Assembly: GCA_964421565.1 (NCBI GenBank)
Contig: CAYQXJ010000001.1
Coordinates: 192,241-256,240, forward strand
Length of the DNA stretch: 64,000 nucleotides
Direction of reading: 5' to 3'
Source of the DNA: an uncultured candidatus Brocadiaceae bacterium
Lineage (GTDB): Bacteria; Planctomycetota; Brocadiia; SM23-32
Shown: one piece after another, positions 19,708-45,328 of the stretch
Position numbering within the stretch: position 1 is the first letter of the stretch
Layout of the letters: every line of letters starts with the position of its first letter
Position numbers and translations under genes: made by a program
Notes under the pieces: model-generated
Seen by the model: the letters and a program-made list of their open reading frames with translations, nothing else
The model's database searches: none
Told to the model about the DNA's origin: nothing

Positions 19708-21135
19708 ATGGCGCGTGAGATCGTCATAGATCCGGTCACTCGCATAGAAGGTCACGCGAAGATCACCATCCACCTGGCGGAGGACGGCGAGGTGGAGGAG
19801 GCGCGGTTCCACGTCACGCAGTTTCGCGGCTTCGAGAAGCTCGTAGACGGGCGCCCCTTCCACGAAATGCCCGCCATCACGGCGCGAATCTGCGGCATCT
19901 GCCCCGTCAGCCACCTGATCGCCTCCTCGAAGGCCTGCGACGGCCTGCTCGCGGTACAGATACCCCCGGCTGCGAACAGGCTGCGCCGGGTGATCAACCT
20001 CGGTCAGATCATCGAATCGCACGCTCTCAGCTTCTTCCACCTTTCCTCGCCGGACCTGATGCTCGGCATGGACGCCGAACCGGCGGAGCGCAACATCTTC
20101 GGACTGATCAAGGCGGACCCCCGCGCGGCGAGGGACGGCGTGCGGCTGCGCCAGTTCGGCCAGCAGGTGATCGAATGGTTCGGCGGCAAGCGCATACATC
20201 CCGCCTGGGTCGTGCCCGGCGGAGTGAACAATCCGCTGAAGCCGGAGCTTCGCGAACGCATCCTGGAAGCCATACCGGGCGTGCTGGACGTGGCGACCCG
20301 GTCGCTGGAATCCTTCAAGCGTCGCATCGAGGAGTTGGCTGAGGAGGCCCGCACGTTTGGCAACTTCCCCAGCGTCTTCATGAGCCTGGTGACCGAGGAC
20401 GGCGGGCTGGAGCTATACGACGGTAAATTGCGCTTCGGCAGTGCCACAGGCGAGATCATGGAAGATCAGGTCGATCCACAGCGCGTGTTCGACTATATAG
20501 GGGAAGCCGTCGAGCCCTGGAGCTACCTGAAGTTCCCCTACCTGAAGTCCGAAGGTTATCCGCAGGGCATGTACCGCGTGGGTCCGCTGGCGCGCCTTAA
20601 CCTGGTGGACCATTGCGGCACGCCCCGCGCCGACCAGGAACTGGCTGAATTCAAAGCGCTCCAGCGCGGCGCCGTGCTCAGCTCGTTCCACTACCACTAT
20701 GCCCGCCTGATCGAGATCGTCTTCGCCCTCGAACGCATGCGGGAACTGCTCCAGGACGAGAGCATAATGAGCAAACACGTCCGCGCCCGGGCGGGGCCCA
20801 ACGCGTGGCAGGGCATCGGCGTCTCTGAGGCGCCGCGCGGCACGCTGATCCACCACTACCGTATCGATGAGCAGGGCATCATGCAGTCGGCCAACCTGGT
20901 GATAGCCACCGCCCACAACAACCTGGCCATGAACCGCAGCGTCACCCAGGTGGCGAAGCACTTCGTGCGAGGCGAGAAGCTTCAGCAGGGCATGCTGAAC
21001 CGCGTTGAGGCGGTCATCAGGGCCTTCGACCCCTGCTTGAGCTGCTCGACTCATGCCCTCGGCAGCATGCCGATGCAGATCCAGCTCATCGGGCCGAGCG
21101 GCGAACTGATCGACAGGTTGCGGCGTGACGGATGA
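19708..21135 (+). CDS. hoxH: [NiFe] hydrogenase large subunit HoxH
   Basis: 475 aa. L1 motif [11 protein letters not shown]2 motif [12 protein letters not shown], and a ~26-aa C-terminal extension after His that the maturation protease removes. Confidence 0.9.
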
Positions 21136-30422: not shown

Positions 30423-31766
30423 TCAGCCTCGCAGTTTGCGTGCGATTCGTGCGCGCAGTATCAGGGCAGCGGCGTTCAGCAGAAGCACCATCATTACCAG
30501 CGTCATCACCATGCCGTACTGCACGTGGCGTATCTCGTCGACGGCCTCATGCTCGGTGGCCAGGTTGTAAATGTTCCATGGCAGCGCCGGGGTGGGCTGG
30601 TTCAGCGTGTCAAGTATACCGAGGGGCCGACCGATGCTGACGGCAGCGGTGAAGATGATGGGCGCCGTTTCGCCCGCTGCCCGGCCCATGCTGATGACGA
30701 TGCCGGTCAGGATGCCGGGCAGCGCGGCCGGCAGCAGCACGGTGACCACCGTGCGCCACTTACTTGCCCCCAGGCTGAGTGCGGCCTCCTTGTAGGCGCT
30801 GGGGACGGCACGTATCGCCTCCTCACTGGCGCGGATGACCGTGGGCAGCACGAGCAGCCCGAGGGTCAGAGAGCCTGCCAGCACGCTCTTGGACGGCGAG
30901 ACGTGGATGGCATTGATGAAGAACGCGAGCCCGAACAGACCGAACACGATGCTGGGAACGCCGGCCAGCGTGCTGATGCAACTGCGCAGCAGGCCGATCA
31001 GCCGCCCCTCGCCGGCATACTCCACCAGGTAGATAGCCGCTATAACGCCCATCGGCACGGCGAAGAGCATGGCGCCGACGGTCAGGTACAGTGTGCCGAG
31101 CACTTCCGGCCAGATGCCGCCGAAGATGTGGGCGTCGATGGACTTCTGCGTCAAGAAGCGCCAGTAGAGCGTCCAGCGGGGCAGCAGCATCTGCCGGAGG
31201 TTCTCTTCCGTGTAGGCGAACAACGGCTCCAGTTCCGTCTCGCGCCACTCCTCCACGCGCGGACTAAACATCTGCTTGCCCATCTGCGTGCCGTCGCCGT
31301 AGTCGTAACTCTCCACGTACAGCAACTCGTGCAGGATGACCTGAGCCCGGTCCCAGCGGGTCTGGCCGTACTGGTTACGCACCATGGGCGGGCGTGGCGC
31401 GTCGGCGGGTGGGCCGAGCAGCTTGTGGACCAGCTTCCTGACCTTGTCGAACTCCTTGCCCTTCTTCAGCTTGAGCATGAAGTCCTCGGCCAGGCGCTCC
31501 TCGTATGCGGCGAGCATGTTGTAGACCGGCTGGCGCGCCGCCTCGGCTGCCGCTGCCCGCGCCAGGACCTCCTGACGGTCACCGACTGCGAACTGCTCAA
31601 GCTGCAGCAGTCGGTGCTCGATGGTGCCGCGGAAGACGAACGCGGCCATTCCACGGGTGAATATAGGCACGAGGATGACCAGCAGCGCGGCGCCCATGAG
31701 CACGACGCCGAATATGCTCAGCCCCGTGAATGAGGTATCGACCACTTTGCGCCCGGTGTTGCTCAT
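30423..31766 (-). CDS. pstA: Phosphate ABC transporter permease PstA (long N-terminal form)
   Basis: 447 aa, multiple TM segments, ABC permease EAA-like region. Position between pstC and pstB. Confidence 0.8.
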
Positions 31767-31770
31767 CGGG

Positions 31771-32958
31771 TTACCTCAGTTTTGCGCGCGCGCGGCGCGT
31801 GATCCACTCCGTCACCAGGTTGGCCAGGAAGCTAAACGTCAGCAGGCAGAGCGCCATGGCGAACAGCACGTGATAGCGGGCCGAACCCGTCGTCTGGTCG
31901 GCCTCGCCCATGTCGCCCGCTATGGTTGCCGTCAGGGTCCTTACCGGCTCCAGCAGGTTGTAGAAAGGGTGGGGTATCTGGGCGGCGTTTCCGGATGCCA
32001 TCCACACCACCATCGTTTCGCCCACGGCGCGCATAACGCCCAGGATCACGGCCGCGCATATGCCGCCGGCGGCTGCCGGTATGATTACGCGGAAGATCGT
32101 CTCGACGCGGGTGGCGCCGAGGGCGTAGCTGCCCTCGCGCAGCTCGCGCCCTGCTGCCTGCAGGGCGTCTTCGGCAACGCTCACCACCGTGGGCAGGGCC
32201 ATGATGCCGAGGATGATCGATACATTGAAGGCGTTCGTCCCGCTGGAGACGTGCATTTCCAGCAGCGATGCCGACGCCCGCCACAACAGCAAGCAGCCCA
32301 GCAGGATCGTCGCGATAACTGCCATGGTCTGCCCGATTCCGCGGTAGGAGGCCGGCAGGCGCCGGGCGACGATGTCGCCGACAACCAGGGCCGCAACCCC
32401 CACTACGGGCACTCCGACCAGCCAGACGGCGACGGTGAGGATGGCACCCCCGTGCTGCTGCAGGTACGGCGCGAAAACGACCAGCGCGAAGAACCCGAAC
32501 GCCACCGAGGGGATGGCGGCCAGTATCTCGATAACCGGTTTCACCATCTGCCGGACGCCGAACGGCAGGACGTCGCTGAGGCAGACGGCGGCAGAGATGC
32601 CAAGCGGCACCGCCACGACGATGGCACCCAGGGTGACGATGGCGCTGCCGTACAAGATGCTCAGCGCGCCGAACGACGGGGGCTCGCGGGAAGGGTACCA
32701 CTCGCGAGTGGTGAAAAACTCAGTGAAGCGTGCCACGCTGAAGGTCGTCCCGCCGTCCTCAGCGGGGAAGAAGAACGGGAGGGCATCTTTGATGATGAAG
32801 GCGAATATGAAGAGGACGGCAATGGCGGAAGCCGAAGTGATGAGGAACAGAAAGGTGCGGCCCAGGAAAGAGCCGACCCGCCTCAGGCGGGTGGCTCTCT
32901 CGCTGAGCAGCAGGCTTCGAGCCTTTGCGTTCTGGCTCTGCGATGAGTCTTGAGGCAT
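31771..32958 (-). CDS. pstC: Phosphate ABC transporter permease PstC
   Basis: 395 aa, polytopic permease. Immediately downstream of pstS. Confidence 0.8.
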   Translation of the reverse strand: MPQDSSQSQNAKARSLLLSERATRLRRVGSFLGRTFLFLITSASAIAVLFIFAFIIKDALPFFFPAEDGGTTFSVARFTEFFTTREWYPSREPPSFGALSILYGSAIVTLGAIVVAVPLGISAAVCLSDVLPFGVRQMVKPVIEILAAIPSVAFGFFALVVFAPYLQQHGGAILTVAVWLVGVPVVGVAALVVGDIVARRLPASYRGIGQTMAVIATILLGCLLLWRASASLLEMHVSSGTNAFNVSIILGIMALPTVVSVAEDALQAAGRELREGSYALGATRVETIFRVIIPAAAGGICAAVILGVMRAVGETMVVWMASGNAAQIPHPFYNLLEPVRTLTATIAGDMGEADQTTGSARYHVLFAMALCLLTFSFLANLVTEWITRRARAKLR

Positions 32959-33001
32959 CTAAGAACGTCCTTCCAGTGCGCGATCGCATCTGGTGTTTAT
33001 C

Positions 33002-33865
33002 TCAGTAGTCCGTGACGGGAACGAAGCCGATGCTCTCTACGATCGCCTGCCCGTCGCGCGTCAGGTGCAGCGTGATGAACGCGTGCAGGTGCGAGCCGAG
33101 CTTCGGATATCCGTCGGTGAACATGTAAAGGGGCCGGGCAATGGCGTACTTGCCCGTGGCGACGGTGCGCGCAGTTGGTTCCACGCCATTGATGGTGAGC
33201 GCCTTGACGGTGCGGTCCACAAAGCCCAGACCGACGTAGCCGATGGCGGCCGGTGTGCTCTGCACACGGGCGCGTATGGCGCCGTTGCTGCCGACGTACT
33301 CGGCGGCGTCGTCGATGCGCTCCTTGTTCATCACGAGGCCCTCGAACGTTTCGTAGGTGCCGCTGTTGGTGTCGCGGCTGATCATGATAATCCGGCGGTC
33401 AGGGCCGCCGACCTGGTTCCAGTTCGAGATCTGACCCTTGTAGATGCGGCGGACCTGCTCGACGCTGAGTTCCTTGACCGGGTTGCTGGGGTGCACGATC
33501 ATCGCGATGCCGTCCATCGCGACCACGTGGGCCACCGGCTGCCTGCCGGCCTCTACAGCGGCGGAGAACTCGCCTTCCTTCATGAATCGCGACATGGCGC
33601 CTACGTCGCAGGTGCCGTTGATCAGGCTCTTGGCGCCGTTGCCGCTGCCGGATTCGCTGACGGTGATGTTGACCTGCGGGTTCTTGGACATGTAGTACTC
33701 GGCGAACGCCTTGGCGATGGGGCCGACGGTAGTCGAGCCGTCCACCACGATGGCGTTCGGGCTGCGCTGCTGGGCGTTGGCATCGAGGGACGCCACGCTC
33801 AGAACGGTCGCGCAGGCGAGCACGGCTGCGATCAGGATAGTCTCCAACGTGCGTACCATGGTCAC
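33002..33865 (-). CDS. pstS: Phosphate-binding protein PstS (signal peptide)
   Basis: 287 aa, GTG start. GSTTVGP...SGSGNG phosphate-binding blocks. Confidence 0.9.
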   Translation of the reverse strand: MTMVRTLETILIAAVLACATVLSVASLDANAQQRSPNAIVVDGSTTVGPIAKAFAEYYMSKNPQVNITVSESGSGNGAKSLINGTCDVGAMSRFMKEGEFSAAVEAGRQPVAHVVAMDGIAMIVHPSNPVKELSVEQVRRIYKGQISNWNQVGGPDRRIIMISRDTNSGTYETFEGLVMNKERIDDAAEYVGSNGAIRARVQSTPAAIGYVGLGFVDRTVKALTINGVEPTARTVATGKYAIARPLYMFTDGYPKLGSHLHAFITLHLTRDGQAIVESIGFVPVTDY

Positions 33866-33907
33866 TCCTCCGTGTTGGCGGTTATCCCGCCTGAAAGATA
33901 GGCTGAT

Positions 33908-33925
33908 TGTGTTAGAAGTGTGTTA
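33908..33925. promoter_or_regulatory. Pho-box-like direct repeat (7-bp TGTGTTA, 4-bp spacer, 7-bp TGTGTTA) upstream of pstS
   Basis: TGTGTTAgaagTGTGTTA lies 43-60 nt upstream of the pstS start codon. PhoB boxes have 7+4+7 (11-bp periodicity) architecture. Confidence 0.35.
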
Positions 33926-33975
33926 GGAGCAGGAGAGCGCCCGGTGAGGAGCGCCCTCCCGCGCCCCCGGGGCGT

Positions 33976-35385
33976 TTAGAAGTCCACCTGCAGACGCATC
34001 ATGAAGGTGTCTGCGTCGGCGTCGTCGATCAAGTCCTCTTCGTACATCCTGTCTTCGAGCGACGAGTTGACGTAGTTCCACATGATGCGCATGTTCGGGT
34101 TGAGGTACCAGTTCAGGCCCAGCGTGACGTTGCTCAGCTCGCCGGCATACATGATGTCGCCGTCGTTCAGGTCAACGTTGGAGTAGCGGGCCGCGACTTC
34201 CCAGGCGCCCAGTCCGCCCTTGCCGTCGAAGTTGTTCTTCGGCTTGACGCGGTCAAACTTGCCGCCGGAAGTCTTGTAAGGACGGTGTTCGCCTGTCAGG
34301 AAGTAGCTGGCGAACACGTAGAAGCCGTCGAACTGCGGGTCATCCATGGATTCGGAGTCCACGTTCGCCGTGATGTACTCACCCTGCAGGCTGAAGGGGC
34401 CGTGCACCCAGGCCGCTTCAAGGCCGCAGAGGACAACGTCATCGGCCATGAACTTGTCCGTGTTGACCCAGCGCTCGGAGGCGAGGTGCACCTCCGGACG
34501 GGCGCGGTAGCGCACCATCTCGGGGCTGTTGCGATAGCTGCCGGCAGCGCCCAGATGCACCAGGCGGGCGCCGTCGTCCTCGTAATAGGGCAGGTAGGTC
34601 AGGCGGCCGGTCGCATTCCAGCCCTCCTGATAGGTCGCCTCGTCGTCGTCGCTGTTGTGCTCTACGAACGTGCCGACCGCCCACGTGCCGCGCTTCTCGT
34701 TGAAGGTGTTAGCCACCTGGACACCGATGTTCCGGCTCGGCGAGAATGCCGCAACCGGAAGTGCACGCTCCATGAAGGTGATGTACTTGCTGCTGGTCAG
34801 TTCTTCAAGGCTGAACGGTTCCTTGAAGTTACCGGCCTTCACGGTGCCGATCGGCAGCAGGTTCGCGAACTCCAGGTAGGCGTCCTTGAAGTCCGCATCG
34901 CCACCGGCGAAGTCTATCTGCAGTTTGTAGCCGGTGTTCTCGTAGATACTGCCTTGCATGTAGAAGCGCGCCCGGCGGAACTCGGCGTCGCCCTCCAACT
35001 CGCCCAGAGTCGCCTCGATCTCGTCGTCCGCACTCATGCTCGCTACGTCGACCATGATGCGTCCGCCGACCTTCAGGCTGAAGGCGCCGTCCAGGCTCTT
35101 GAAGCGCAGACCCTTGCTCCAGTATGCCTTCAGGGTCTCTGGGCCGTAGAGCTGTTCCATCTCCTCGCGGACAATCTGCGAGACCTGCTCTCTGTCGACC
35201 CCCTGCCGGGCGGGGGGCAGACCCCGCTCGCGGGAATACTCTTCCAGCCGCTTCTCGAGTTCGTCAACACGCCGACGCAGGACATCCACTTCGGAATACC
35301 CCGCCGACGCTACGCCACCAACCAGCAGGGAGAGCCCCACTGCCAGCAGCACCGCTCTGCTTGCCATTCTACACATGCTATGCAT
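33976..35385 (-). CDS. Phosphate-selective porin O/P (OprP-like) outer-membrane beta-barrel
   Basis: 469 aa. Signal peptide, N-terminal coiled segment, then an aromatic-rich beta-strand pattern ending in a terminal Phe (..MRLQVDF). Confidence 0.75.
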   Translation of the reverse strand: MHSMCRMASRAVLLAVGLSLLVGGVASAGYSEVDVLRRRVDELEKRLEEYSRERGLPPARQGVDREQVSQIVREEMEQLYGPETLKAYWSKGLRFKSLDGAFSLKVGGRIMVDVASMSADDEIEATLGELEGDAEFRRARFYMQGSIYENTGYKLQIDFAGGDADFKDAYLEFANLLPIGTVKAGNFKEPFSLEELTSSKYITFMERALPVAAFSPSRNIGVQVANTFNEKRGTWAVGTFVEHNSDDDEATYQEGWNATGRLTYLPYYEDDGARLVHLGAAGSYRNSPEMVRYRARPEVHLASERWVNTDKFMADDVVLCGLEAAWVHGPFSLQGEYITANVDSESMDDPQFDGFYVFASYFLTGEHRPYKTSGGKFDRVKPKNNFDGKGGLGAWEVAARYSNVDLNDGDIMYAGELSNVTLGLNWYLNPNMRIMWNYVNSSLEDRMYEEDLIDDADADTFMMRLQVDF

Positions 35386-35808
35386 CCTCTAAGAGTTGAA
35401 CGGACGGACAGTTGCAGAAACAAACCGCAGTGATTAGGGGGGAAGACTGCCTGCATCTGCGCGCACGCCGTCGGTGACGGCGCGCGCGGCGTCACACTCC
35501 ATCCTCCGGACCTCGCATGTCTGCCACGCTCTGCCGCTCAGGCGTGCACGCGCCACCGGCGGCCCCCACGGACCGATACGCGACCGATGGCACGCTGCTG
35601 CTTTTGCGCTTGTGCACACGGGTAGAGCGGGGACAGTAGCCGAGGCGCTGCCTCGTTGCGTTGTGTCCACGGGCGCACGCCGCCTCGCAAAACGCGCACT
35701 CGGGGTGCTCAAGCCATCTGCCTTGAGCAGCACAGGATAGGGCCGGGCTATGAGGGAGGTGTTAGCGCTCGTTGAGAAACGCGATGACGTGCGCCGGGCG
35801 GCGCGACG

Positions 35809-37587
35809 TCATTCGCTCGGCAGGTAAATGGTGAATGTGCTGCCCTTGCCGAGAGTGGTCTGCACGTCCACGCGGCCGCCGTGGGCCTGGGCGATGTGCT
35901 TGACGATAGCCAGCCCCAGGCCGGTGCCCCCGCTCTTGCGGTCCCGACCGCGGTCTACGCGGTAGAAGCGCTCGAATATGCGCGGCAGGTGCTCTGAGGG
36001 TATCCCCGGCCCCTCGTCGCGCACGCTGATGCGCGCCTCCTGTCCCTCCCGGCGCGCTTCCACGCGGATGCTGCTGCCTGCCGGGCTGTAGGTGACGGCA
36101 TTGTCCACGAGGTTGAAGACGGCCTGCTCGAGCAGGGCGGCGTTCATGGGAATGCGCACTTTGCCTTCGCACTCGAGCTCCACGTGTACGTCCTTTGTCT
36201 CGGCGGCTGTGCGGCAGAGCGCCACCGCCGACTCGACCACCTCGTCGAGCGCCCCTTGCTCGAGGCTCACCTCTCCGGCTTCGACCTCTCGTTCGGTGCG
36301 GCTCAGCGTCAGCAGGTCGTTGAACAGCATCTGCAGGCGGTCGGCCTGCCTGACGATGATGCTCAGGAAGCGTTCGCGCTTGCGTGCGTCATCCTCCTGC
36401 TGCTCCAGCAGGGTTTCGGCGAAGCCTTTGATGACGGTGATGGGCGTTCGCAACTCATGGCTGACGTTCGCCACGAAGTCCTGGCGCATGCGTTCCAGGC
36501 GGCGCAGGCGGGTCACGTCGTTCAGTGCCAGCAGCGTGCCGGCGGGTTCGCCCTCGGTGCCTCTCAGCACGGTACCCCGCACGTGCAGGTGCAGCTCGCC
36601 CTCCTCACCCGGTAGCGTCACTTCGCCCTCCACCAGTTCGTCAGCGCCGAGGGCCCTGTTGATGATCTGGTGCAGACCGGGGTTGCGCACGATCTCCTGT
36701 ATGGTGCGGCCCACGGCCCGGCCGGCGTCGGTGCCCAGTAGTCCGGCTGCCGCGCGGTTCATGATCAGTACGCGGTCCTCGGCGTCCACGGCGAGAACGC
36801 CCTCCACCATGCTGCGCAGCACGGCCTCCAGCTCGTTGCGCTGCTGCAGCACGGTGCCGACGCGCTGGTCCAGGCGCTCTGCCATCTGGTTCATCGCCTC
36901 GGCGAGCGACGCGAGCTCTCTGGCCTTGGGCACGGGCACTTTGTGCTTCAGGTCGCCTCGGGCGAACCACTCCGCTCCGCCCTGCAGTTCCTGGAGCGGT
37001 TTCACGATGCGCCGCGAGGCGTAGAGGCTTGCCGCCGCCGCAACCAGGGCGACGATCACTGCCCAGAGCAGCACCTTCTCGCTGAACCAGCCTATGGTCT
37101 GCTGCATGCTGGCCAGTGGCACCGAGGCCCGCACCACGTGGGTGACTCTCCCTCTGTCGCTGCGCAGGGGCACGGCCACGTACATCATTGTTCGGCGCAA
37201 AGTGCGGCTGCGGCGTACGGCCTGGCCGACTTCGCCCCGGAGCGCATGGGCGATCTCCGGGCGGTCGGCGTGGTTCTCCATGCGTTCGGAGTCCTCGTGC
37301 GAGTCGCCCAGCACGTCGCCGAACTCATCCACCACGGTAAGGCGAGCCTCCGCATGCTCGCTGAGGGCTGCGCAAAGCTCATCGAGGTTGCCGTTGCCTT
37401 CGGCGAGCAGGGCTTCGCGTATCTGGGTGCTGGCCAACCGCGCCCGCCCCTCCAGGCCGTCGGCCGTCACTTGTTGATGGAAGCTCTGCAGCAGGTGGCT
37501 TCCGTACCACAGCACGGCCACCAGTACCCCGAAGGTGATGAGCAGATATGACGGGTACAGTTGCCACAGCAGGCGTCTGCGGGCCAC
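35809..37587 (-). CDS. phoR: Phosphate regulon sensor histidine kinase PhoR (TM, HAMP, PAS, HisKA, HATPase)
   Basis: 592 aa. H-box NVSHELRTPITVIKGF, PAS region, G-box GGTGLGLAIVKHI. Confidence 0.85.
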   Translation of the reverse strand: MARRRLLWQLYPSYLLITFGVLVAVLWYGSHLLQSFHQQVTADGLEGRARLASTQIREALLAEGNGNLDELCAALSEHAEARLTVVDEFGDVLGDSHEDSERMENHADRPEIAHALRGEVGQAVRRSRTLRRTMMYVAVPLRSDRGRVTHVVRASVPLASMQQTIGWFSEKVLLWAVIVALVAAAASLYASRRIVKPLQELQGGAEWFARGDLKHKVPVPKARELASLAEAMNQMAERLDQRVGTVLQQRNELEAVLRSMVEGVLAVDAEDRVLIMNRAAAGLLGTDAGRAVGRTIQEIVRNPGLHQIINRALGADELVEGEVTLPGEEGELHLHVRGTVLRGTEGEPAGTLLALNDVTRLRRLERMRQDFVANVSHELRTPITVIKGFAETLLEQQEDDARKRERFLSIIVRQADRLQMLFNDLLTLSRTEREVEAGEVSLEQGALDEVVESAVALCRTAAETKDVHVELECEGKVRIPMNAALLEQAVFNLVDNAVTYSPAGSSIRVEARREGQEARISVRDEGPGIPSEHLPRIFERFYRVDRGRDRKSGGTGLGLAIVKHIAQAHGGRVDVQTTLGKGSTFTIYLPSE

Positions 37588-37590
37588 GGC

Positions 37591-38277
37591 TCACTCCTTG
37601 AAGCGATAGCCCACGCCGCGTACGGTCTCGATCAGGTCGCCGAAGCTCCCCAGTTTCTTGCGCAGCGTGGCGATGTGGAAATCGACCGACCGGTCGGTCA
37701 CGGGATAGTCCGAGCCCCGCACTGCGTCGATGATCTGGTAACGGGTGAACACCCAGCCCGGGCGCCGGGCCAGGAAGTGGAGTATCTGGAACTCGGTGTG
37801 CGTCAGGTCGATGCGCTCCTCGCCGGCGCGCACCTCGTGCCGGCCGGGATGGATCAGCAGGTCATGCGCCTCGATCGGCTCGTCTTCGGCCACCGGCTCC
37901 CGCCTTTTGCGGCGCAACACCGCGCGCACGCGGGCCATCAGCACGCGCGGGCTGAACGGCTTGGTCACGTAGTCGTCCGCCCCGAGCTCGAGCCCGGCCA
38001 CGATGTCCGCTTCCTCGCCCTTCGCCGTGAGCATGACGATGGGTATGTGCGCGCTCTCCTGGTCTGCCTTCAACCTGCGGCAGACTTCCAGCCCGTCGAT
38101 GCCGGGCAGCAACAGGTCCAGCACGATCAAGTCCGGCCTCTGTGCGCGAGTCTTCTTGAGCGCTTCCTCGCCCGTGCCCACGCACGTTACCTCGTAGCCT
38201 TCCCGCTCGACGTGATGGCCGACCAGTTCCCGGATGTCCTCTTCGTCGTCGACGACCAGTATGTGTTCCTTCGGCAT
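37591..38277 (-). CDS. phoB: Phosphate regulon response regulator PhoB (OmpR family)
   Basis: Start MPKEHILVVDDE. Receiver plus winged-helix (GYRF) output domain. Confidence 0.85.
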   Translation of the reverse strand: MPKEHILVVDDEEDIRELVGHHVEREGYEVTCVGTGEEALKKTRAQRPDLIVLDLLLPGIDGLEVCRRLKADQESAHIPIVMLTAKGEEADIVAGLELGADDYVTKPFSPRVLMARVRAVLRRKRREPVAEDEPIEAHDLLIHPGRHEVRAGEERIDLTHTEFQILHFLARRPGWVFTRYQIIDAVRGSDYPVTDRSVDFHIATLRKKLGSFGDLIETVRGVGYRFKE

Positions 38278-38451
38278 TGGCGCCCCCTGATCCGTGTTAG
38301 GTTCGGGTACACCCATCTGTATTATAGTCTACTATGTTAGCGCGCGGTGAGCGCTTCTCGATGCCCGCGTGAGCCGATCCGCCCCCCAGGCCTGGGCGAC
38401 ATCTGTCCATGATGTGTTCTCGCCGTCCGAGAGGGCGCGGCGCACGTTCGA

Positions 38452-39774
38452 CTACCGGATCTCCGCCGCCGGGGTTGGCGAGCGCGGGGACTGCTTGCGG
38501 CGCAGGGTCGGACCATCTTCGACCAGGGGGTCGGGCCAACCGTAACGTTCGTGCATGCGCAGCAGCCATTTCTCGAGCCGGCGTTCGAGCTCGCACGCTA
38601 CGTCGCGTTCCACGTTGATCAGGTTGGTCTGCTCGTCTGGGTCTTTGGCCAGGTTGTATAGTTCGCGCACGGCGGTTCCGTGCCAGTTATGCAGGGGTGT
38701 GTCCGAGGCTGCCCGGATGAGCTTCCAGTCCCTGGTGCGCACGCCGCGCTTCACCTGCCAGGTGCCTTCGGCGAGGAACAGGTTCTCGTAGCCGGCTTCG
38801 CCCTGTGCCACGGCCAGCAAGTCCTTGCCGCACATGTCGGCCGGAGCGTCCGCGCCCGCCAGTCTCAGCAGCGTAGGGGGCAGGTCGAGCATCTGCACCA
38901 TCGGCTCCACCCGCGCCCCGGCGTGCTCTGCGCCGGGCAGCTTCACGATGAGCGGCACGTGGATGTTGTCGTCGTAGAGGCCGTGATGGTCGAAGTAGCC
39001 CTCGTGGCGGTCGAGCACTTCGCCGTGGTCGGAGAAGGCGACGATCAGCGATTCGTCGTAGAGGTCGCGGGCCTTCAGCTCCTCCAGGAATGCGCCCAAA
39101 TGCTCGCTGTTGTATGCGATCTCTGCATCGTACTGAGCGCAGACGTAGCCGGCGTCGGTTATGTCCTCGTCGATCCACCCCCAGCCGACGAATGGGCCGG
39201 CGCGGACCTCGAGCATGGAGGTCTTTGACGGATCTCGCGGATCGCCTTCGTAGAACATGCCGCTGTAGGGTTCGGGCGGCCAGTAGGGTGTGTGAGGGTC
39301 CCAGTAGTGGACGAACTGGAAGAAAGGCCGTCCGCCGGGCAGGTCGTCGAGCATCTGGACGGCGGCGGCGCTGATCAGCTCCGCGTTGCGTTTCACCCGC
39401 GCCTCCTTGTCGGACCCCATACCGGGCCAACGGCGTTCGGCGAACCCATCGCCGAAGAGCTCGGCGTGCCCGTGCAGGTTGTCCACGGCGCAGGTGTGAT
39501 AACCCGCGTCGGTGAGCAGCGCTGGCAGCCAGGGCGCTTCTTCCGGAATCCGCCGCGGCGGTATGACGCCCGCTATCCGATGCCCGTAATCCGCAAGTCC
39601 GGTGAAAAGCGACGCGAAGGACGGATCGGTCGGGATCGCCGGCGCGAAGAAGTTCTCGAACACGATGCCGTCTTCGGCCAGGGCGTCCAGGGCGGGGCTG
39701 GTCTGGCGCCCGTAGCCGTAGCAGCCGAGGTGATCGGCGCGCAGGGTATCGATGGCGATCAGGATGATGTTCAT
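38452..39774 (-). CDS. Sulfatase-family (alkaline phosphatase superfamily) hydrolase with a Thr in the nucleophile position (T-D-P-S-F instead of C-x-P-x-R); no signal peptide
   Basis: The ORF 38452..39861 has a probable start at MNIILIAIDTLRADHLGCYGY (39774). Sulfatase-fold blocks throughout. The motif position reads AIPTDPSFASLFTG. Confidence 0.7.
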   Translation of the reverse strand: MNIILIAIDTLRADHLGCYGYGRQTSPALDALAEDGIVFENFFAPAIPTDPSFASLFTGLADYGHRIAGVIPPRRIPEEAPWLPALLTDAGYHTCAVDNLHGHAELFGDGFAERRWPGMGSDKEARVKRNAELISAAAVQMLDDLPGGRPFFQFVHYWDPHTPYWPPEPYSGMFYEGDPRDPSKTSMLEVRAGPFVGWGWIDEDITDAGYVCAQYDAEIAYNSEHLGAFLEELKARDLYDESLIVAFSDHGEVLDRHEGYFDHHGLYDDNIHVPLIVKLPGAEHAGARVEPMVQMLDLPPTLLRLAGADAPADMCGKDLLAVAQGEAGYENLFLAEGTWQVKRGVRTRDWKLIRAASDTPLHNWHGTAVRELYNLAKDPDEQTNLINVERDVACELERRLEKWLLRMHERYGWPDPLVEDGPTLRRKQSPRSPTPAAEIR

Positions 39775-39951
39775 GGGCCGCTCCGAGCTGAGGCAACCGG
39801 GTACGCGCAGGCAGCTTGCTAAGGCGGCACGAATCCTACGCGGGCGGCCCGCGTGTGTCAAGGCTGGGCAGTGGCCGCGAGCTTGACGGTTTCTGCGGGC
39901 GCTGTTATCGTTCAGCGCGAACGAAAACTTATGCTCGGGAGACCCTCACAG

Positions 39952-41014: not shown

Positions 41015-41659
41015 GTGACCATGTGCGAGACACTCAGCGCGATCCTCGACAGCGGTGTGGTGGCCATCATTCGGGCCGACCGCTCGGAGGGGCTGGTCGA
41101 AGCGGGCAGGGCACTTGCCCGCGGCGGTGTGCGGTGTGTCGAGGTCACAATGACTACCCCCGGCGCGCTGGACGCCATCGCCGGCCTGTGCGAGGCGAGC
41201 GGGGGGGCCTTCATTGTGGGGGCGGGCAGCGTTCTCGACGCGGAGACCGCCCGCGCATGCATCCTGGCCGGGGCCGAATTCCTGGTGATGCCCACCACCG
41301 ACCGTGGCGCGATCCGAATGGCGAAGCGCTACGGCAAGGTCGTCTGCCCGGGCGCGCTCTCGCCGACCGAGGTGCTCTCGGCGTGGCAGGCCGGCGCCGA
41401 CATCGTGAAGGTCTTTCCCGCATCGCTCGGCGGTCCGGCCTACCTTAAGGCGCTGAAGGGGCCGCTGCCGCAGGTGCGCCTGATGCCAGTCGGGGGGGTG
41501 AGTGCGGACAACGCGGCCGACTTCATCCGCGCGGGAGCCTGCGCGGTGGCCCTCGGAAGCGCCCTGGTCAACGACCGGCGCATCGAGACGGCGGATTGGG
41601 ACGCGATAACGCAGGCAGCACGCCAGGTCGTGGAGGCGGTTGGAGAGGCCAGGTCATGA
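41015..41659 (+). CDS. eda: KDPG/KHG aldolase (Eda family)
   Basis: 214 aa. AIIRADRSEG...VRCVEVTMTTPGAL...GAGSVLD...VFPAS..GGPAYLKALKGPLPQVRLMPVGGV typical of Eda. Confidence 0.85.
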   Translation: MTMCETLSAILDSGVVAIIRADRSEGLVEAGRALARGGVRCVEVTMTTPGALDAIAGLCEASGGAFIVGAGSVLDAETARACILAGAEFLVMPTTDRGAIRMAKRYGKVVCPGALSPTEVLSAWQAGADIVKVFPASLGGPAYLKALKGPLPQVRLMPVGGVSADNAADFIRAGACAVALGSALVNDRRIETADWDAITQAARQVVEAVGEARS

Positions 41660-43285
41660 GCTGGCGATCGGGCAGAAGGGATCGCACTCGGTGAACGGGT
41701 CGAGCCCGAGCCCGCTGGTGACGGCCATGCAGCCGGCGCAGACGGCGTGCAGCGCGCAGTTGCCACAGGTCGCCGTCCCGCGGCGGTAGCGATCGGCCGC
41801 CTCTGAGTCGTAGATCTCCGCCAGGGCGTTCTGGCCGACGTTGCCGATTGCCGAAGGGAACTTGCGGCACGCGTGCACCTCGCCGTCCGGCAGCAGGGCC
41901 AGGAAGTTGAACGCCGCCCCGCACCCGTAGCCCGTGCACCCCCCGAAGATGCCTTCCCCCCGAGCATCGCGCACCGGATTCAGCAGATTGTCCTTCAACG
42001 TCAGCATCGCATTCTCGCGCGCAGCGTCGAGGTAGTCCTCCATGAAGGCCGAATAACGCTCAGGGGAGGGCAGAAGCAGGTGCGCACCTTCGCCTACCGG
42101 CGAGAGGCGGTTGAAGGTGAAGCTGTCCGTCTTGCCGCGCAGCTCCTCGGCGAGTGGCAACACCTGGTCAATGTTGGCGTCGGTAAGGGTGAGCATCACG
42201 GCGGAGCGCACCCCGGCGGCCCTCAGCACGTCCAGGAACTCCAACGTGCGGCGAAAGTGCCCCTCGCCCCGTATGCTGTCATTGTGCTCGGCGAGCCCTT
42301 CCAGGCTCACCTGGTAGTAGCGGGGGCGCTGTACTTCTACGATGCGCTCGACATCTTCCTCCGAAGCAGGATTGCCGAGTATGGAGGTGTTGAACCCACG
42401 ATCGGCTGCAGCGCGATAGAGGTCCAGGAACGCTGGATGCAGCAGGGGATTGCCGCCGGTCAGGCAGACGTGGCCGCGCACGTAGCGGTCCCAGCAGAAG
42501 CTGCGCATCTCATCCAGCACCCGCAGCCCCTGTTCGAGCGTCAGGGGTGAACGCTGGCTGCGATCGTAACAGTGCTTGCAGTGCAGATCGCAGCGGTTGG
42601 TGATGTGCCACTGAAGCGTGAAGTTTTCGGCCCTCAAGAACCGCTCCGGTGTGTCGGCCCTGTTGCGGTCGGCTGCACGCCACAGGCGAGGCGGCGGAGC
42701 CAGCAACAGCCCCTTCTCGATGGCGCGCCAAACCAGCCGGTCCACGGTGCCGACCGGCACTCTCCCCTCGTGCGCAGCCTCCTGCGCAGAGATGCCTTCT
42801 GCGTAGAGCTTCACCACGAGCAGATCGCCGTCCTCAGCTTTCTCGGTGCGCAGTTCATCCTTCTGCGGGTTGCGCCACACGGCAATCCACTCGCGCTCCT
42901 TGCGCAGGGGCCCCTCCGCAGAGCCCTTTGAGAATGCATCGCTGAGGGACCAGCGGACGTCGAGCACGTGGAGACTGGGGTTCAGAATGATCGACTCTGT
43001 CGTGCTCGGCAGCTCACAGCTTGCGACCTCGCAACGCGCGCGCGCCAGCCTCGCCACGTCCGTTACCAGCTCTGGCGACCTGGTCTGTTTCAGTGTTCGG
43101 TGAACGGCCCGTAGCAACTGCGGCGGGTGCTCGGCGGACGCCGCGCCTGTGCCGTTGCGAGCCCGTAAACCGCTTGACGCCTGGACCCCCTGATGGTTAG
43201 CCATCCTTAGAAAACGCCCCCTGGCGTGGCAGGGCCGCCCCCAACGGCGGCCCCCACGCCGCTTTAAGTCATCGTTCGGGACCAT
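41654..43285 (-). CDS. Radical SAM/SPASM-domain enzyme with a ~215-aa N-terminal extension containing a sigma-70 region-4-like / RRE-like winged helix
   Basis: 543 aa. The CxxxCxxC motif (HITNRCDLHCKHCYD) is at aa 232-239. The C-terminal Cys-rich SPASM-like region is GGCTGYGCG...CRKF...TCGNCALHAVCAGC...ECDPFC. The N-terminal segment LLVVKLYAEGISAQEAAHEGRVPVGTVDRLVWRAIEKGLL resembles ECF sigma region 4. Confidence 0.75.
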   Translation of the reverse strand: MVPNDDLKRRGGRRWGRPCHARGRFLRMANHQGVQASSGLRARNGTGAASAEHPPQLLRAVHRTLKQTRSPELVTDVARLARARCEVASCELPSTTESIILNPSLHVLDVRWSLSDAFSKGSAEGPLRKEREWIAVWRNPQKDELRTEKAEDGDLLVVKLYAEGISAQEAAHEGRVPVGTVDRLVWRAIEKGLLLAPPPRLWRAADRNRADTPERFLRAENFTLQWHITNRCDLHCKHCYDRSQRSPLTLEQGLRVLDEMRSFCWDRYVRGHVCLTGGNPLLHPAFLDLYRAAADRGFNTSILGNPASEEDVERIVEVQRPRYYQVSLEGLAEHNDSIRGEGHFRRTLEFLDVLRAAGVRSAVMLTLTDANIDQVLPLAEELRGKTDSFTFNRLSPVGEGAHLLLPSPERYSAFMEDYLDAARENAMLTLKDNLLNPVRDARGEGIFGGCTGYGCGAAFNFLALLPDGEVHACRKFPSAIGNVGQNALAEIYDSEAADRYRRGTATCGNCALHAVCAGCMAVTSGLGLDPFTECDPFCPIASS

Positions 43286-43311
43286 GGCTGGTGCCGCGGC
43301 CCCTGGTTTCG

Positions 43312-43542
43312 TCAGCTACAAGAGCCCTGGCCACACGAAGACGCGTCGGTCTTCTCACCCGAGCACGAGCCGTTGCCGCACGAGCCAGCGCCACATGAGG
43401 CTTTCTCCGTCTTGGTGCCGTCATCGTCACGGGCGGCTCCGCGGTGCGTGGATGAACATCCTGTCGCCGCCAGCGTTGCGCCGGCCAGCAGCCCGGCTAC
43501 GCTCAACGTTGCCAGCGCTCGTCCCAGCTTACCCTTATCCAA
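43312..43542 (-). CDS. Small Cys/Gly/Ser-rich lipoprotein-like peptide (candidate radical SAM substrate)
   Basis: 76 aa. TTG start with an AGGAGG Shine-Dalgarno 7 nt upstream. Signal/lipobox LSVAGLLAGATLAATGC. Core ...KASCGAGSCGNGSCSGEKTDASSCGQGSCS with repeated SCGxGSC. Stop lies 27 nt upstream of the rSAM gene on the same strand. Confidence 0.55.
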   Translation of the reverse strand: MDKGKLGRALATLSVAGLLAGATLAATGCSSTHRGAARDDDGTKTEKASCGAGSCGNGSCSGEKTDASSCGQGSCS

Positions 43543-43819
43543 TGAAGCCCCTCCTGTCGCGAGAGTGAAGAAACCACCGGGGGCACCTCGCCCTCCGGTC
43601 CCGTCTAACTATGTCACTGTGTGATACCTATTGTTCAGGTGAAAAGCGCCCCACATCGGCTTCTGCCCGGGGGGGCCGCACTTGATCAGGAGTTCAGACG
43701 CCACTGTACCAGGGCCGCAGCAGAACGGCTATAGGGCTCTTCCCCACCTGGGCGCTCGTTCTGCACCACAAGGCACGCAGAGACGCTGCCCATCTGCCGC
43801 TTTCGCCCTGGCTCCGGGG

Positions 43820-43841
43820 CCCGTGCTGTCGGGCGCACGGG
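43820..43841 (-). terminator. GC-rich hairpin (7-bp stem CCCGTGC/GCACGGG, 8-nt loop) 9 nt downstream of the Tat-sulfatase stop
   Basis: Inverted repeat read directly, with no U-tract, as is common in high-GC genomes. It separates the sulfatase from the peptide/rSAM unit, which has its own AT-rich upstream region. Confidence 0.3.
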
Positions 43842-43849
43842 CAGGGTGC

Positions 43850-45328
43850 TCAGTTCTTCCAGACGTCGGGGTCGTCGGTCTCGTGGCGCAACTGGCGCAT
43901 GCGCAACTGCAGTTGCGTGATCAGTTCCTCGTGGCCTTCCACAGCGGCCAGGTTGTGCAGCTCGTCCGGGTCTTCGCTCAGGTCGTAGAGTTCATGAGCC
44001 TGGGGCGAGCGGCTGTACCAGTGGATGTATTTGTGGCGCTCGGTGCGGATGCCACGGAAGGGGGGGATGTTGCCCAGTTCGGGGAACTCGTAGTACTCAT
44101 ACAGCCAGTCCTCTCGCCATGGCGTCGGTTCGCCCCGCAGCAACGGCAGAAAGCTGCGCCCCTGCATGTGGTCGGGCACCGGCGCGCCGGCAATCTCCAG
44201 CAGCGTGGGGGCGATGTCGATGTTGAGCACCATGGGATGGAGGACCGTGCCGGCGGGTATGCCAGCCGGCCATCGCAGCACGAACGGCACGCGTATAGAG
44301 GGTTCGTACATCAGGCGCTTGTCACCGAGGCCGAACTCGCCCATGAAACGGCCGTTGTCGGAGGTGTGGATGACCACGGTGTCCCGCGCCAGGCCCTGCT
44401 GCTGGAGTGCTTCGAGAACCTGGCCGACACTATCGTCGACGGCCGCCAGTAACTGGTATATCCTGCGCTGTCGCTCGGCCCACGCGGCGATCCTTGCGGG
44501 GTCTGTTCCCTTTGCTGCGCGGCTGCGCACCCACTCGGGCCGGTCGGACATGTCGGCGCCCCAGCTCTGCGGTGGGTCGAACTCGTGGTCCTCATACATG
44601 TGGGCGAACCGCTCCGGCGGCTCCAACGGCACGTGCGGCGCTTTGTACCAGACGAAAAGGATGAAGGGCTTGCTGTGCGGACGCCGTATGAACTGGAGCG
44701 CATGTTCCGTCAGTATGTCCGTAAGATGGCCCTCGTAAACGCGGTCCTCGTACGGTCCCTGGGGCGAGTCGGCCTCGGCGATTTGCGGGTTGTGGTACCA
44801 GCTATGGCCCTTGAAGCCGAAGTAGTAATCGAAGCCTCGGTCGCGCAGGTAGGGCTTGAAATGCGACTTGCCGATGAACGCCGTCTCGTAGCCGTGCCTT
44901 TGCATGATTTCCGGGAAGGTGACGAACTCCCTGGAGAGGGCTACCTCCTCGAGACGGGGCGTCACGCGGTTCGCGCAGATCAGGTGCGAGTGGCTGTATA
45001 GCCCGGTCATGATGGAGGCGCGGGAAGGCGCACACAGGGAGTTGGTGACGAATGCATTGCTCAGCAGGGCGCCTTCGTCTGCGATGCGGTCGATGTTTGG
45101 CGAGTGCACCCAGGGGTTCCCGTAGGCGCCGATGGCCGAGGCGGGGTGGTCATCCGGCATGAACATGACGATGTTGGGCCGGCCCATGCTATTTCCTGGC
45201 GGCATGTGTTCGGTCCCTTCTCTCTTCGTGGTCTGCAAACAGCCGGTGGATGAGGCGAGCAGCCCGGCGGCCGCGGTTGTCGCCGCCCCCTTCAGAAGGT
45301 TGCGCCTGTCGATGCGTATACTCTCCAC
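43850..45328 (-). CDS. Arylsulfatase-family sulfatase (Cys-type) with Tat signal peptide
   Basis: 492 aa. RRNLLKGAATTAAAGLLASS twin-arginine signal. FGly motif CAPSRASIMTG. C-terminal IRTERHKYIHW...ELYDLSEDPDELHNLA. Confidence 0.9.
   Translation of the reverse strand: MESIRIDRRNLLKGAATTAAAGLLASSTGCLQTTKREGTEHMPPGNSMGRPNIVMFMPDDHPASAIGAYGNPWVHSPNIDRIADEGALLSNAFVTNSLCAPSRASIMTGLYSHSHLICANRVTPRLEEVALSREFVTFPEIMQRHGYETAFIGKSHFKPYLRDRGFDYYFGFKGHSWYHNPQIAEADSPQGPYEDRVYEGHLTDILTEHALQFIRRPHSKPFILFVWYKAPHVPLEPPERFAHMYEDHEFDPPQSWGADMSDRPEWVRSRAAKGTDPARIAAWAERQRRIYQLLAAVDDSVGQVLEALQQQGLARDTVVIHTSDNGRFMGEFGLGDKRLMYEPSIRVPFVLRWPAGIPAGTVLHPMVLNIDIAPTLLEIAGAPVPDHMQGRSFLPLLRGEPTPWREDWLYEYYEFPELGNIPPFRGIRTERHKYIHWYSRSPQAHELYDLSEDPDELHNLAAVEGHEELITQLQLRMRQLRHETDDPDVWKN

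Follow-up and report, generated by a model that had tools for sequence, protein, structure and literature searches.

A stretch of 64,000 nt from an uncultured candidatus Brocadiaceae bacterium (contig CAYQXJ010000001.1; hereafter the window, to whose positions all coordinates refer) carries on its minus strand a small gene for a cysteine-rich peptide and, directly downstream of it, a gene for a radical S-adenosylmethionine (rSAM)/SPASM enzyme. An initial annotation had described the first of these as a 76-aa open reading frame (ORF) with a TTG start, an AGGAGG Shine-Dalgarno and a Cys-rich, lipobox-bearing product, and this description is confirmed from the sequence together with matches to hidden Markov models (HMMs). 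The same annotation proposed that the two genes encode a precursor and maturase of a peptide that is ribosomally made and then modified post-translationally (RiPP), which is upheld by 685 bits for the enzyme against NCBIfam TIGR04082 and by an SbtA-like ORF upstream in 66/80 SbtM loci. Its further suggestion that the system may be undescribed does not stand: the pair is an unannotated, selenium-free member of the SbtA/SbtM family (TIGR04081/TIGR04082), organized as a two-gene sbtA-sbtM cassette. This family was noticed first by Haft (2011) and its chemistry was demonstrated by Lewis et al. (2021), as summarized elsewhere (PMC9204691, PMC11002830). The features of the locus are the following.

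43550..43555, minus strand: Shine-Dalgarno AGGAGG, 7 nt before the sbtA TTG, read from the sequence
43312..43542, minus strand: sbtA, 76-aa precursor peptide with TTG start and TGA stop, from the TIGR04081 match, a leave-out leader HMM and relatives
43459..43542, minus strand: sbtA signal peptide/leader, residues 1-28 (MDKGKLGR-ALATLSVAGLLAGATLAATG), the region matching TIGR04081
43456..43467, minus strand: sbtA lipobox A-T-G-C, with the Cys29 codon at 43456-43458, fitting the PROSITE-type lipoprotein pattern
43315..43404, minus strand: sbtA Cys-rich core, residues 47-76 (KASCGAGSCGNGSCSGEKTDASSCGQGSCS), with five S-C-[G/S] sites as predicted thiooxazole positions
43223..43260, minus strand: GC-rich hairpin of 15 bp between sbtA and sbtM, possible partial terminator or attenuator, from folding energy against coding controls
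41654..43204, minus strand: sbtM, rSAM/SPASM thio(seleno)oxazole maturase, 516-aa reading, from TIGR04082
41654-43285, minus strand: longest sbtM ORF, up to the ATG at 43285, 543 aa, from the ORF list
42662..43084, minus strand: putative SbtM N-terminal peptide-recognition domain of the RiPP recognition element (RRE) type, residues 41-181 of the 516-aa form
42569..42592, minus strand: SbtM CxxxCxxC radical SAM motif, C205, C209, and C212 of the 516-aa form, invariant columns
41729..41923, minus strand: SbtM SPASM auxiliary Fe-S cluster domain, residues 428-492, PF13186

The SbtA peptide (MDKGKLGRALATLSVAGLLAGATLAATGC-SSTHRGAARDDDGTKTEK-ASCGAGSCGNGSCSGEKTDASSCGQGSCS) consists of a basic N-terminus, an 18-residue hydrophobic stretch, the lipobox A-T-G-C29, a charged linker and five core cysteines (C50, C55, C60, C70, and C75), each lying within S-C-[G/S]. 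A GGAGG or GGGGG motif with a TTG start recurs at the related loci L004, L005, and L019. For the enzyme, position 21 of TIGR04082 aligns to residue 50 of the 543-aa ORF, so that the 516-position model projects onto the ATG at 43204; this is probably the true start, giving a protein of 516 aa, equal to the model length. The spacer then measures 107 nt, and the gap of 27 nt reported initially is corrected to 26 nt for the first ATG of the 543-aa ORF. Public annotation instead places the sbtM start at a GTG inside the gene, for a product of 467 aa, so that the conserved PDLARLE motif is cut and part of the conserved N-terminal region is lost, and sbtA is uncalled in the public assemblies having the locus (L001-L003 among them). 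With the peptide gene uncalled and the enzyme start mis-set, automated pipelines miss Cys-only SbtA genes. At its other end, sbtM lies tail to tail with a convergent 2-keto-3-deoxy-6-phosphogluconate (KDPG) aldolase gene; their stop codons abut (TCATGA, 41654-41659), which leaves no space for a terminator 3' of sbtM.

Residues 50-539 of the 543-aa ORF match positions 21-516 of the 516 in TIGR04082 at 685.2 bits (cutoff 350), and the second-best NCBIfam family, the ACGX system, reaches 172 bits, far under its own cutoff. The enzyme carries its CxxxCxxC motif as CDLHCKHC, matches Pfam Radical_SAM (64 bits) and SPASM (34.5 bits), and has invariant Cys columns at 423, 428, 446, 480, 483, 489, 492, and 511. 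More than 3,000 SbtM homologues are present in public data, many of them titled "selenobiotic family peptide radical SAM maturase," and the identity of the window enzyme to other family members is only about 50-58%.

The peptide is linked to the family through its leader. Residues 1-26 of SbtA align to positions 1-26 of the 27-position TIGR04081 (E = 5.8e-5, 22.7 bits, cutoff 30.5), so that the signal-peptide-like N-terminus is the very part that defines the known precursor family. A direct search of a 5.8-billion-protein database yielded only two close relatives (P0121 and P0122; 65 and 66 aa, E = 1.8e-8 and 3.1e-7), both with the leader MDKxxxxxxLATLSVAGLLAGATxxxTGC and the core SCGQGSCGxGSCG, and each encoded ahead of an SbtM homologue. 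An HMM of the leader was also built from 66 SbtM-adjacent peptides of other genomes, with the window peptide and its close relatives left out. This model scores the window SbtA at 34.9 bits (E = 6.6e-10) with its position 1 on the TTG, and the runner-up among 1,422 six-frame segments of the window reaches 6.2 bits; judged by sequence, the ORF is far beyond chance. Within the 80-locus genome set the closest peptide comes from a Brocadiaceae metagenome-assembled genome (MAG; L019).

With the described SbtA/SbtM pairs the window pair has in common the enzyme family at equivalog level, the precursor leader as judged by the leave-out HMM, the [S/G/A]-[C/U]-[S/G] site grammar (U, selenocysteine) and the two-gene layout with the peptide gene first. 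It differs in being Cys-only, without a selenocysteine codon or selenocysteine insertion sequence (SECIS), in its SCGxGSC-type repeats with Ser instead of Gly preceding Cys, in a precursor that falls under the curated HMM cutoff, and in the diverged first ~40 residues of SbtM. Taken alone, the locus adds one routine case, left unannotated, to a curated family and opens no new class.

Conservation of the pair and its selenium-free precursor

The 80 SbtM loci were drawn from species-representative genomes; the 900 nt upstream of each were translated with TGA read as U and searched with the leader HMM. Conservation of the small ORF beside rSAM homologues had been set beforehand as one of two checks that could overturn the pair. 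In 66 loci the ORF immediately upstream of SbtM is SbtA-like. About 10 of the other 14 have such an ORF elsewhere, either downstream, on the opposite strand or as an upstream match of low score, two of these matches being weak. Four loci have no SbtA match, and three of the four end at a contig edge with no upstream sequence. The conserved pairing contradicts the alternative, raised in the initial annotation, of a metal-binding lipoprotein unrelated to the rSAM enzyme. Gene order varies in places, the SbtA-like gene being found on the strand opposite sbtM in L007, L009, and L011 and downstream of it in L026, L033, L052, L054, and L064.

Neighbour clustering over the 80 loci recovered SbtM in 76 of them and no conserved third gene, the largest extra clusters occurring in 11 and 6 loci; by eye, from the sequences alone, we take these to be DUF547-like and MsrA-like. 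No dedicated exporter, protease or immunity gene is conserved with the pair in this clustering. With no conserved third gene, export must rely on general machinery. A third neighbour "cluster" was discarded as it comprised antisense ORFs and not a gene family. The hosts named for the 80 loci include Nitrospirota, Brocadiaceae/Brocadiia, Omnitrophota, Lentisphaerae, Chloroflexota, Calditrichaceae, and KSB1. The host of the window is itself a planctomycete, whereas a published perspective limits the pair to Geobacter and Desulfobacteria (PMC9204691); the range of the family exceeds that description. When the upstream regions of the five closest loci were aligned, the ribosome-binding site and start codon were all that was kept, with no common operator, and a TCAC-N3-GTGA palindrome at about 43611-43625 in the window was not conserved.

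In-frame TGA codons, one to four per peptide and in the context [S/G/A]-U-[S/G/T/N], are found in 46/66 upstream SbtA peptides, and the remaining 20, from other genomes than that of the window, are Cys-only. A hairpin of the form GGUGC-AGGUN-GCACC stands 13-20 nt after each selenocysteine TGA of the family. When 58 of these hairpins were aligned, the six-pair stem was 95% paired with compensatory changes at three pairs, and the observed stem pairing or covariation was reached in 0/500 shuffles. A covariance model of this family SECIS hairpin (R1) scores 18-40 bits on genuine selenocysteine sites, untrained ones included, and gives no match on nine Cys-only loci.

The window sbtA also stops at TGA, a 10-bp imperfect hairpin starts 8 nt past it, and an in-frame UGA is read as selenocysteine in the 46 relatives noted above; the terminal UGA might then be decoded in the same way to give a longer selenopeptide (…GSCS-U-RNQGPRHQPWSRTMT). 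We regard this as very improbable. R1 has no match at the window UGA, its best score anywhere in the window being 8.5 bits, compared with the 18-40 bits of genuine sites; the hairpin has the loop ACCA and not the G/U-rich loop (AGGU or AGUU) of selenocysteine sites; the S-U-R context misfits the family pattern; and the tail RNQGPRHQPWSRTMT is unlike any family member. The Cys-only relatives L012, L021, L038, and L063 likewise stop at TGA, followed by junk. An Rfam scan of 43000-44000 (E <= 10) returned two chance microRNA matches and neither a SECIS nor a riboswitch family, and no selenocysteine tRNA is encoded in the window, which is uninformative for the whole genome. Read-through was rejected on the missing SECIS match and the wrong loop. 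As R1 has no match at its UGA, the window SbtA is Cys-only and the UGA is a stop. The selenocysteine criterion covers the selenoprotein subset of SbtA only, so its absence here does not exclude membership of the family.

Several further observations concern the selenocysteine-containing relatives. Many encode two to four selenocysteines per about 70-110 residues (L072 3406-3732, L046 3548-3880, L045 817-1062; L010-L086), and their per-UGA SECIS hairpins lie partly within the coding sequence, a possible reason for the G-A-G-G-T peptide motif that recurs behind each selenocysteine. In the Cys-only locus L024, the terminator-like hairpin after sbtA (3773-3822) contains CACGCAGTTTGCGTG, the stem-loop that follows the last selenocysteine codon in L061 (identical stem and loop), L075, and L076, and it looks like a SECIS that was kept or reused as a terminator once selenocysteine was lost. 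SECIS-model matches outside the delimited SbtA ORFs at L029 1321-1362 (38 bits) and L035 3063-3104 (28 bits) suggest that the peptide of L029 is longer or that L035 has a further selenopeptide gene.

Fold and predicted chemistry of the maturase

An AlphaFold (AF2) model of the 516-aa SbtM has a mean predicted local distance difference test score (pLDDT) of 87. The closest folds to the whole model are CteB (5WGG/5WHY) and SuiB (5V1Q-T), aligned over 457-493 columns and built in the same way from an N-terminal recognition domain, an rSAM core and a SPASM domain. They differ from SbtM in that sequence identity is only 15-19%, their products carry a thioether or Lys-Trp crosslink and not a heterocycle, and the precursor type is also different. 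The 190-residue N-terminal extension of SbtM adopts an RRE fold in the predicted structure. Its nearest matches in the structure comparison are NGO1945 and TglI, partner proteins of the multinuclear iron oxidases (MNIOs), and the list also includes the recognition elements of TbtB, MibB, TfuB1, TbiB1, and NisB. At the sequence level the link to DUF2063 amounts to marginal Pfam matches, with DUF2063 in 3/25 members (best E = 0.068) and NGO1945_C in 1/25 (E = 0.0016-0.01), and a profile search of PDB sequences with the N-terminal domain did not recover 3DEE. Given this, the link to NGO1945 is a resemblance of predicted structure and not demonstrated homology. The modeled resemblance suggests that the rSAM and iron-dependent thiooxazole routes have in common both signal-bearing precursors and a recognition module.

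The presence of sulfatase genes at 43850-45328 and 38452-39861 raises the question of whether the rSAM enzyme serves the flanking sulfatases by forming their formylglycine, as an anaerobic sulfatase-maturating enzyme (anSME), the small ORF being incidental. Mechanistically, the SbtM reaction is related to the thiol oxidation carried out by anSME (PMC9204691), and anSMEcpe is among the fold matches, at rank 13. That alignment covers the core only (361 columns, against 457-493 for CteB and SuiB), a profile search of PDB sequences with SbtM gives SkfB, CteB, and SuiB and no anSME, and no anSME model is in the top 25 NCBIfam matches, of which SbtM is the best family. In addition, no sulfatase family recurs beside SbtM in the 80 loci, while the small ORF is conserved with it. 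We give this explanation next to no credence; it was rejected on the NCBIfam ranking, the PDB profile matches, the fold coverage and the RRE-fold extension. The expectation that the enzyme would not group with sulfatase maturases is accordingly borne out by NCBIfam, PDB profile search and fold comparison alike.

What SbtM does is known from in vitro work on a homologue with minimal substrates. With a minimal Gly-Cys (or Gly-selenocysteine) peptide the reaction gives a loss of 4 Da and a band at 304 nm (PMC9204691, PMC11002830). The Cys beta-carbon loses a hydrogen to 5'-deoxyadenosine, alkylation of the thiol is still possible, nuclear magnetic resonance of the product is consistent with a thio(seleno)oxazole, and the enzyme holds about three 4Fe-4S clusters (PMC9204691). 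The biological function of SbtA and the final product are stated as unknown in the same perspective (PMC9204691). Across the family, Cys or selenocysteine sites are preceded by S, G or A in 191/195 cases, Ser being the commonest, and are followed by S, G, T or N. By analogy, the chemistry at the window locus is likely the conversion of Cys to 5-thiooxazole with a loss of 4 Da per site. The initial annotation had looked for thioether crosslinks at -2 Da each, which is at odds with the family reaction of Cys or selenocysteine to 5-thio(seleno)oxazole at -4 Da each. The five S-C-[G/S] sites of SbtA lead to a prediction of up to five 5-thiooxazoles.

It is distinctly improbable, in our assessment, that the same pair installs a different modification in the Cys-only SCGxGSC clade, such as thioether or other crosslinks of the kind found in ranthipeptides or sactipeptides. 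The modest identity to family members (about 50-58%), a Ser-Cys context where Gly-Cys was tested, an i/i+5 Cys spacing that could suit crosslinks or disulfides, and nearest solved folds that are thioether-forming enzymes would all be compatible with it. Weighing more heavily are an equivalog-level HMM score nearly 2x the cutoff and a leader and [S/G/A]-[C/U]-[S/G] grammar common to Cys-only and selenocysteine-type peptides. The SbtA core is also without obvious acceptor residues in a SCIFF-like arrangement. The SCIFF/ranthipeptide and sactipeptide models (PapB, StsB, AlbA, and SkfB) score SbtM at 36-62 bits against cutoffs of 300-850, those of PapB and StsB at about 61 bits against cutoffs of 340-625.

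In the mechanism that we propose on the basis of thiooxazole formation, cytoplasmic SbtM, with its SPASM and N-terminal RRE-type domains, would bind the SbtA precursor, presumably through the RRE-type domain. It would then take a hydrogen from each SbtA Cys beta-carbon via 5'-deoxyadenosyl radicals, and each Cys would form a 5-thiooxazole with the carbonyl of the residue before it, at -4 Da per site and up to -20 Da in all.

Spacer hairpin, predicted export and a proposed role

The sbtA-sbtM spacer folds into a 15-bp hairpin (43223-43260, -35.0 kcal/mol) that is followed by GUUUUCU at 43209-43215; control windows of 50 nt from the coding regions have a mean of -14.3 and a minimum of -22.2 kcal/mol. 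Similar hairpins reach -31 kcal/mol in the gaps of the related metagenome loci L004 and L005. In 9/13 Cys-only loci with a gap >= 90 nt the gap hairpin beats the strongest coding-window control, and T-runs follow such hairpins in several Cys-only loci (L015, L024, L056, L065, and L080). We infer that the spacer hairpin attenuates or partly terminates transcription between sbtA and sbtM, which would probably hold the sbtA transcript in excess over that of sbtM. Upstream of sbtA, the "unusually AT-rich promoter-like stretch" of the initial annotation corresponds to a modest dip to GC 0.52 at 43610-43669 against a background of about 0.65, and no consensus site passed a sigma-70 promoter scan of 41400-44000. 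The hairpin claimed after the upstream sulfatase is present as an 8-bp stem beyond the stop codon of that gene; it is without a U-tract, however, and shuffled sequence is as structured as the 318-nt sulfatase-sbtA spacer (z = -0.43).

The leader of SbtA has the character of an export signal throughout the family. Across the 77 family peptides compared, about three Lys/Arg within the first ten residues and a hydrophobic core are kept. A strict lipobox pattern is found in 41/77, with a modal Cys position of 29 as in the window SbtA, and about 16 more have G-C at that position but miss the strict pattern through a Pro, Asp or Gln at -2 or a Pro at -3; the remainder have AxA ends of the signal-peptidase-I type (AQA, ANA, VHA, and VFA). 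This alternation of lipobox and AxA ends among homologues argues for a real secretion signal, and these sequence patterns give good support to the view that the SbtA N-terminus serves the whole family as a true Sec or lipoprotein signal. The Sec/lipobox-like leader recognized initially is supported in this way. Signal alternation and the lack of a dedicated transporter or protease gene together point to export by Sec and, here, to predicted lipidation at Cys29. The modified SbtA would be exported by Sec, diacylglycerol-modified at Cys29 and cut by signal peptidase II. The product would be a 48-residue membrane-anchored periplasmic peptide with up to five thiooxazole-thiolate ligands, and by analogy it would most likely chelate soft metals such as copper.

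A Sec-type leader had been considered atypical for RiPPs, but precedents exist in the bufferins, which have Sec signals and copper-binding thiooxazoles (PMC11626156), and in lipoprotein-RiPP hybrids, which have been demonstrated with iron-dependent enzymes (PMC13056109). Neither report ties these features to rSAM systems. Bufferins and oxazolins, which combine BufA with the MNIO BufB and the DUF2063 protein BufC (PMC11626156, PMC12452194), resemble the SbtA/SbtM pair in several respects: Cys-rich precursors with Sec signals, some of lipoprotein type, conversion of Cys to 5-thiooxazole (-4 Da, predicted for SbtA), the lack of a dedicated exporter and, for SbtA by analogy only, periplasmic metal chelation. 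The N-terminal domain of SbtM also resembles the DUF2063-family partner NGO1945 in the predicted structure. The differences are equally clear, since SbtM is an O2-independent rSAM/SPASM enzyme whereas theirs is a multinuclear iron oxidase that depends on O2, SbtM has its recognition domain fused where they have a separate protein, the SbtA core is short and of low complexity where theirs is a folded small protein, and no MNIO, DUF2063 or DoxX genes are present at the window locus. The SbtA/SbtM pair would work like a bufferin system yet is not a member of the MNIO systems, there being no MNIO (DUF692) or DUF2063 among the flanking genes. Diacylglycerol-modified RiPPs (DAG-RiPPs) such as DybA and NedA (PMC13056109) likewise have a signal-peptidase-II lipobox in which the first Cys is the would-be lipid site and later Cys are the modification sites, and are modified by a cytoplasmic enzyme before export. 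In contrast, the DAG-RiPPs described came from searches restricted to MNIO-associated precursors and some autoinducing peptides, no rSAM enzyme matures any of them, and the lipidation of SbtA is predicted.

An antimicrobial ("selenobacteriocin"-type) or signaling peptide, as opposed to a metal-binding envelope peptide, would be a different outcome of the same maturation. The family appears as "Selenobacteriocin" in one review (PMC13188914), antibiotics are numerous among RiPPs, and no SbtA function has been published (PMC9204691). We consider this unlikely, as immunity, transporter and protease genes are not conserved with the pair in the 80 loci, lipobox anchoring in most members disfavours a diffusible toxin, and the same heterocycle binds copper in bufferins and oxazolins (PMC11626156, PMC12538549). 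Metal chelation is, by this analogy, the most likely function.

As a whole, the locus is quite probably best explained as an SbtA/SbtM cassette that would make a Sec-exported, lipid-anchored, metal-chelating thiooxazole peptide and carries a candidate attenuator hairpin. Several points weigh against this explanation. The window SbtA scores under the curated TIGR04081 cutoff (22.7 vs. 30.5 bits), the first ~40 residues of SbtM are without the YPxCR motif kept in relatives and have low model confidence, and the characterized substrate has Gly ahead of Cys or selenocysteine where the window SbtA has Ser. Activity, export, lipidation and metal binding are only predicted for the window clade, and no biological role of any SbtA was found published in the searchable literature, the primary SbtM paper being outside it. 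For the hairpin, the U-tract is just 4 U long, with an offset of 7 nt, and a generic terminator scan of 41400-44000 found one site, no more than in shuffled sequence.

A wider proposal is that all SbtA, the multi-selenocysteine ones included, are Sec-exported and mostly lipid-anchored envelope peptides that chelate soft metals via thio(seleno)oxazoles, as the O2-independent rSAM counterpart of bufferins. SbtM would then be a DUF2063/RRE-type module, common also to the iron-dependent thiooxazole systems, fused to a SPASM rSAM core. The window copy would represent a naturally selenium-free form of the system and, at the same time, the first rSAM-matured lipoprotein-RiPP hybrid. We put this forward tentatively, as a possibility of some weight. 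This counterpart reading was not found stated in the searchable literature, again with the primary SbtM paper outside that search. The signal and lipobox pattern, the lack of a dedicated exporter and the structural link to MNIO partners lead to a testable hypothesis of an anaerobic envelope-anchored thiooxazole metallophore. Of the leads from this locus, the lipoprotein-signal idea stands out as the most interesting. As a natural substrate that is free of selenium and has five sites, SbtA would offer an easy experimental entry to the full product.

Neighbouring genes

The pair is flanked by genes for a twin-arginine translocation (TAT)-signal sulfatase, a galactonate dehydratase, the KDPG aldolase, and a PfkB kinase; these sugar-acid and sulfatase neighbours do not recur beside SbtM elsewhere in the 80 loci. 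The best named matches of the galactonate dehydratase are to Planctomycetota/Brocadiia MAGs at 72-79% identity, in keeping with a planctomycete host. The second sulfatase-family protein (38452-39861, minus strand) has T-D-P-S-F at the position of the formylglycine motif C/S-x-P-x-R (AIPTDPSFASLFTG), and its N-terminal part gives a weak match to phosphoethanolamine transferases, enzymes that work through a Thr nucleophile; this protein is perhaps not a sulfatase dependent on formylglycine. At 19708-21135 on the plus strand the window has a gene resembling NiFe hydrogenase large subunits (Pfam NiFeSe_Hases 3e-34), which would suit an O2-sensitive rSAM system in a host with an anaerobic or facultative lifestyle.

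Further away, ARAGORN calls an 88-nt tRNA-Ala(GGC) at 9148-9235 on the plus strand, inside an aldehyde dehydrogenase ORF (8895-10406; Pfam Aldedh 1.7e-81), which is probably a false positive. Near the locus, at 30423-38316, lies a phosphate-starvation-type cluster with genes for a binding-protein-dependent transport permease (Pst-like by context), a phosphate-selective porin O/P, a PhoR-like kinase and an OmpR/PhoB-like regulator.

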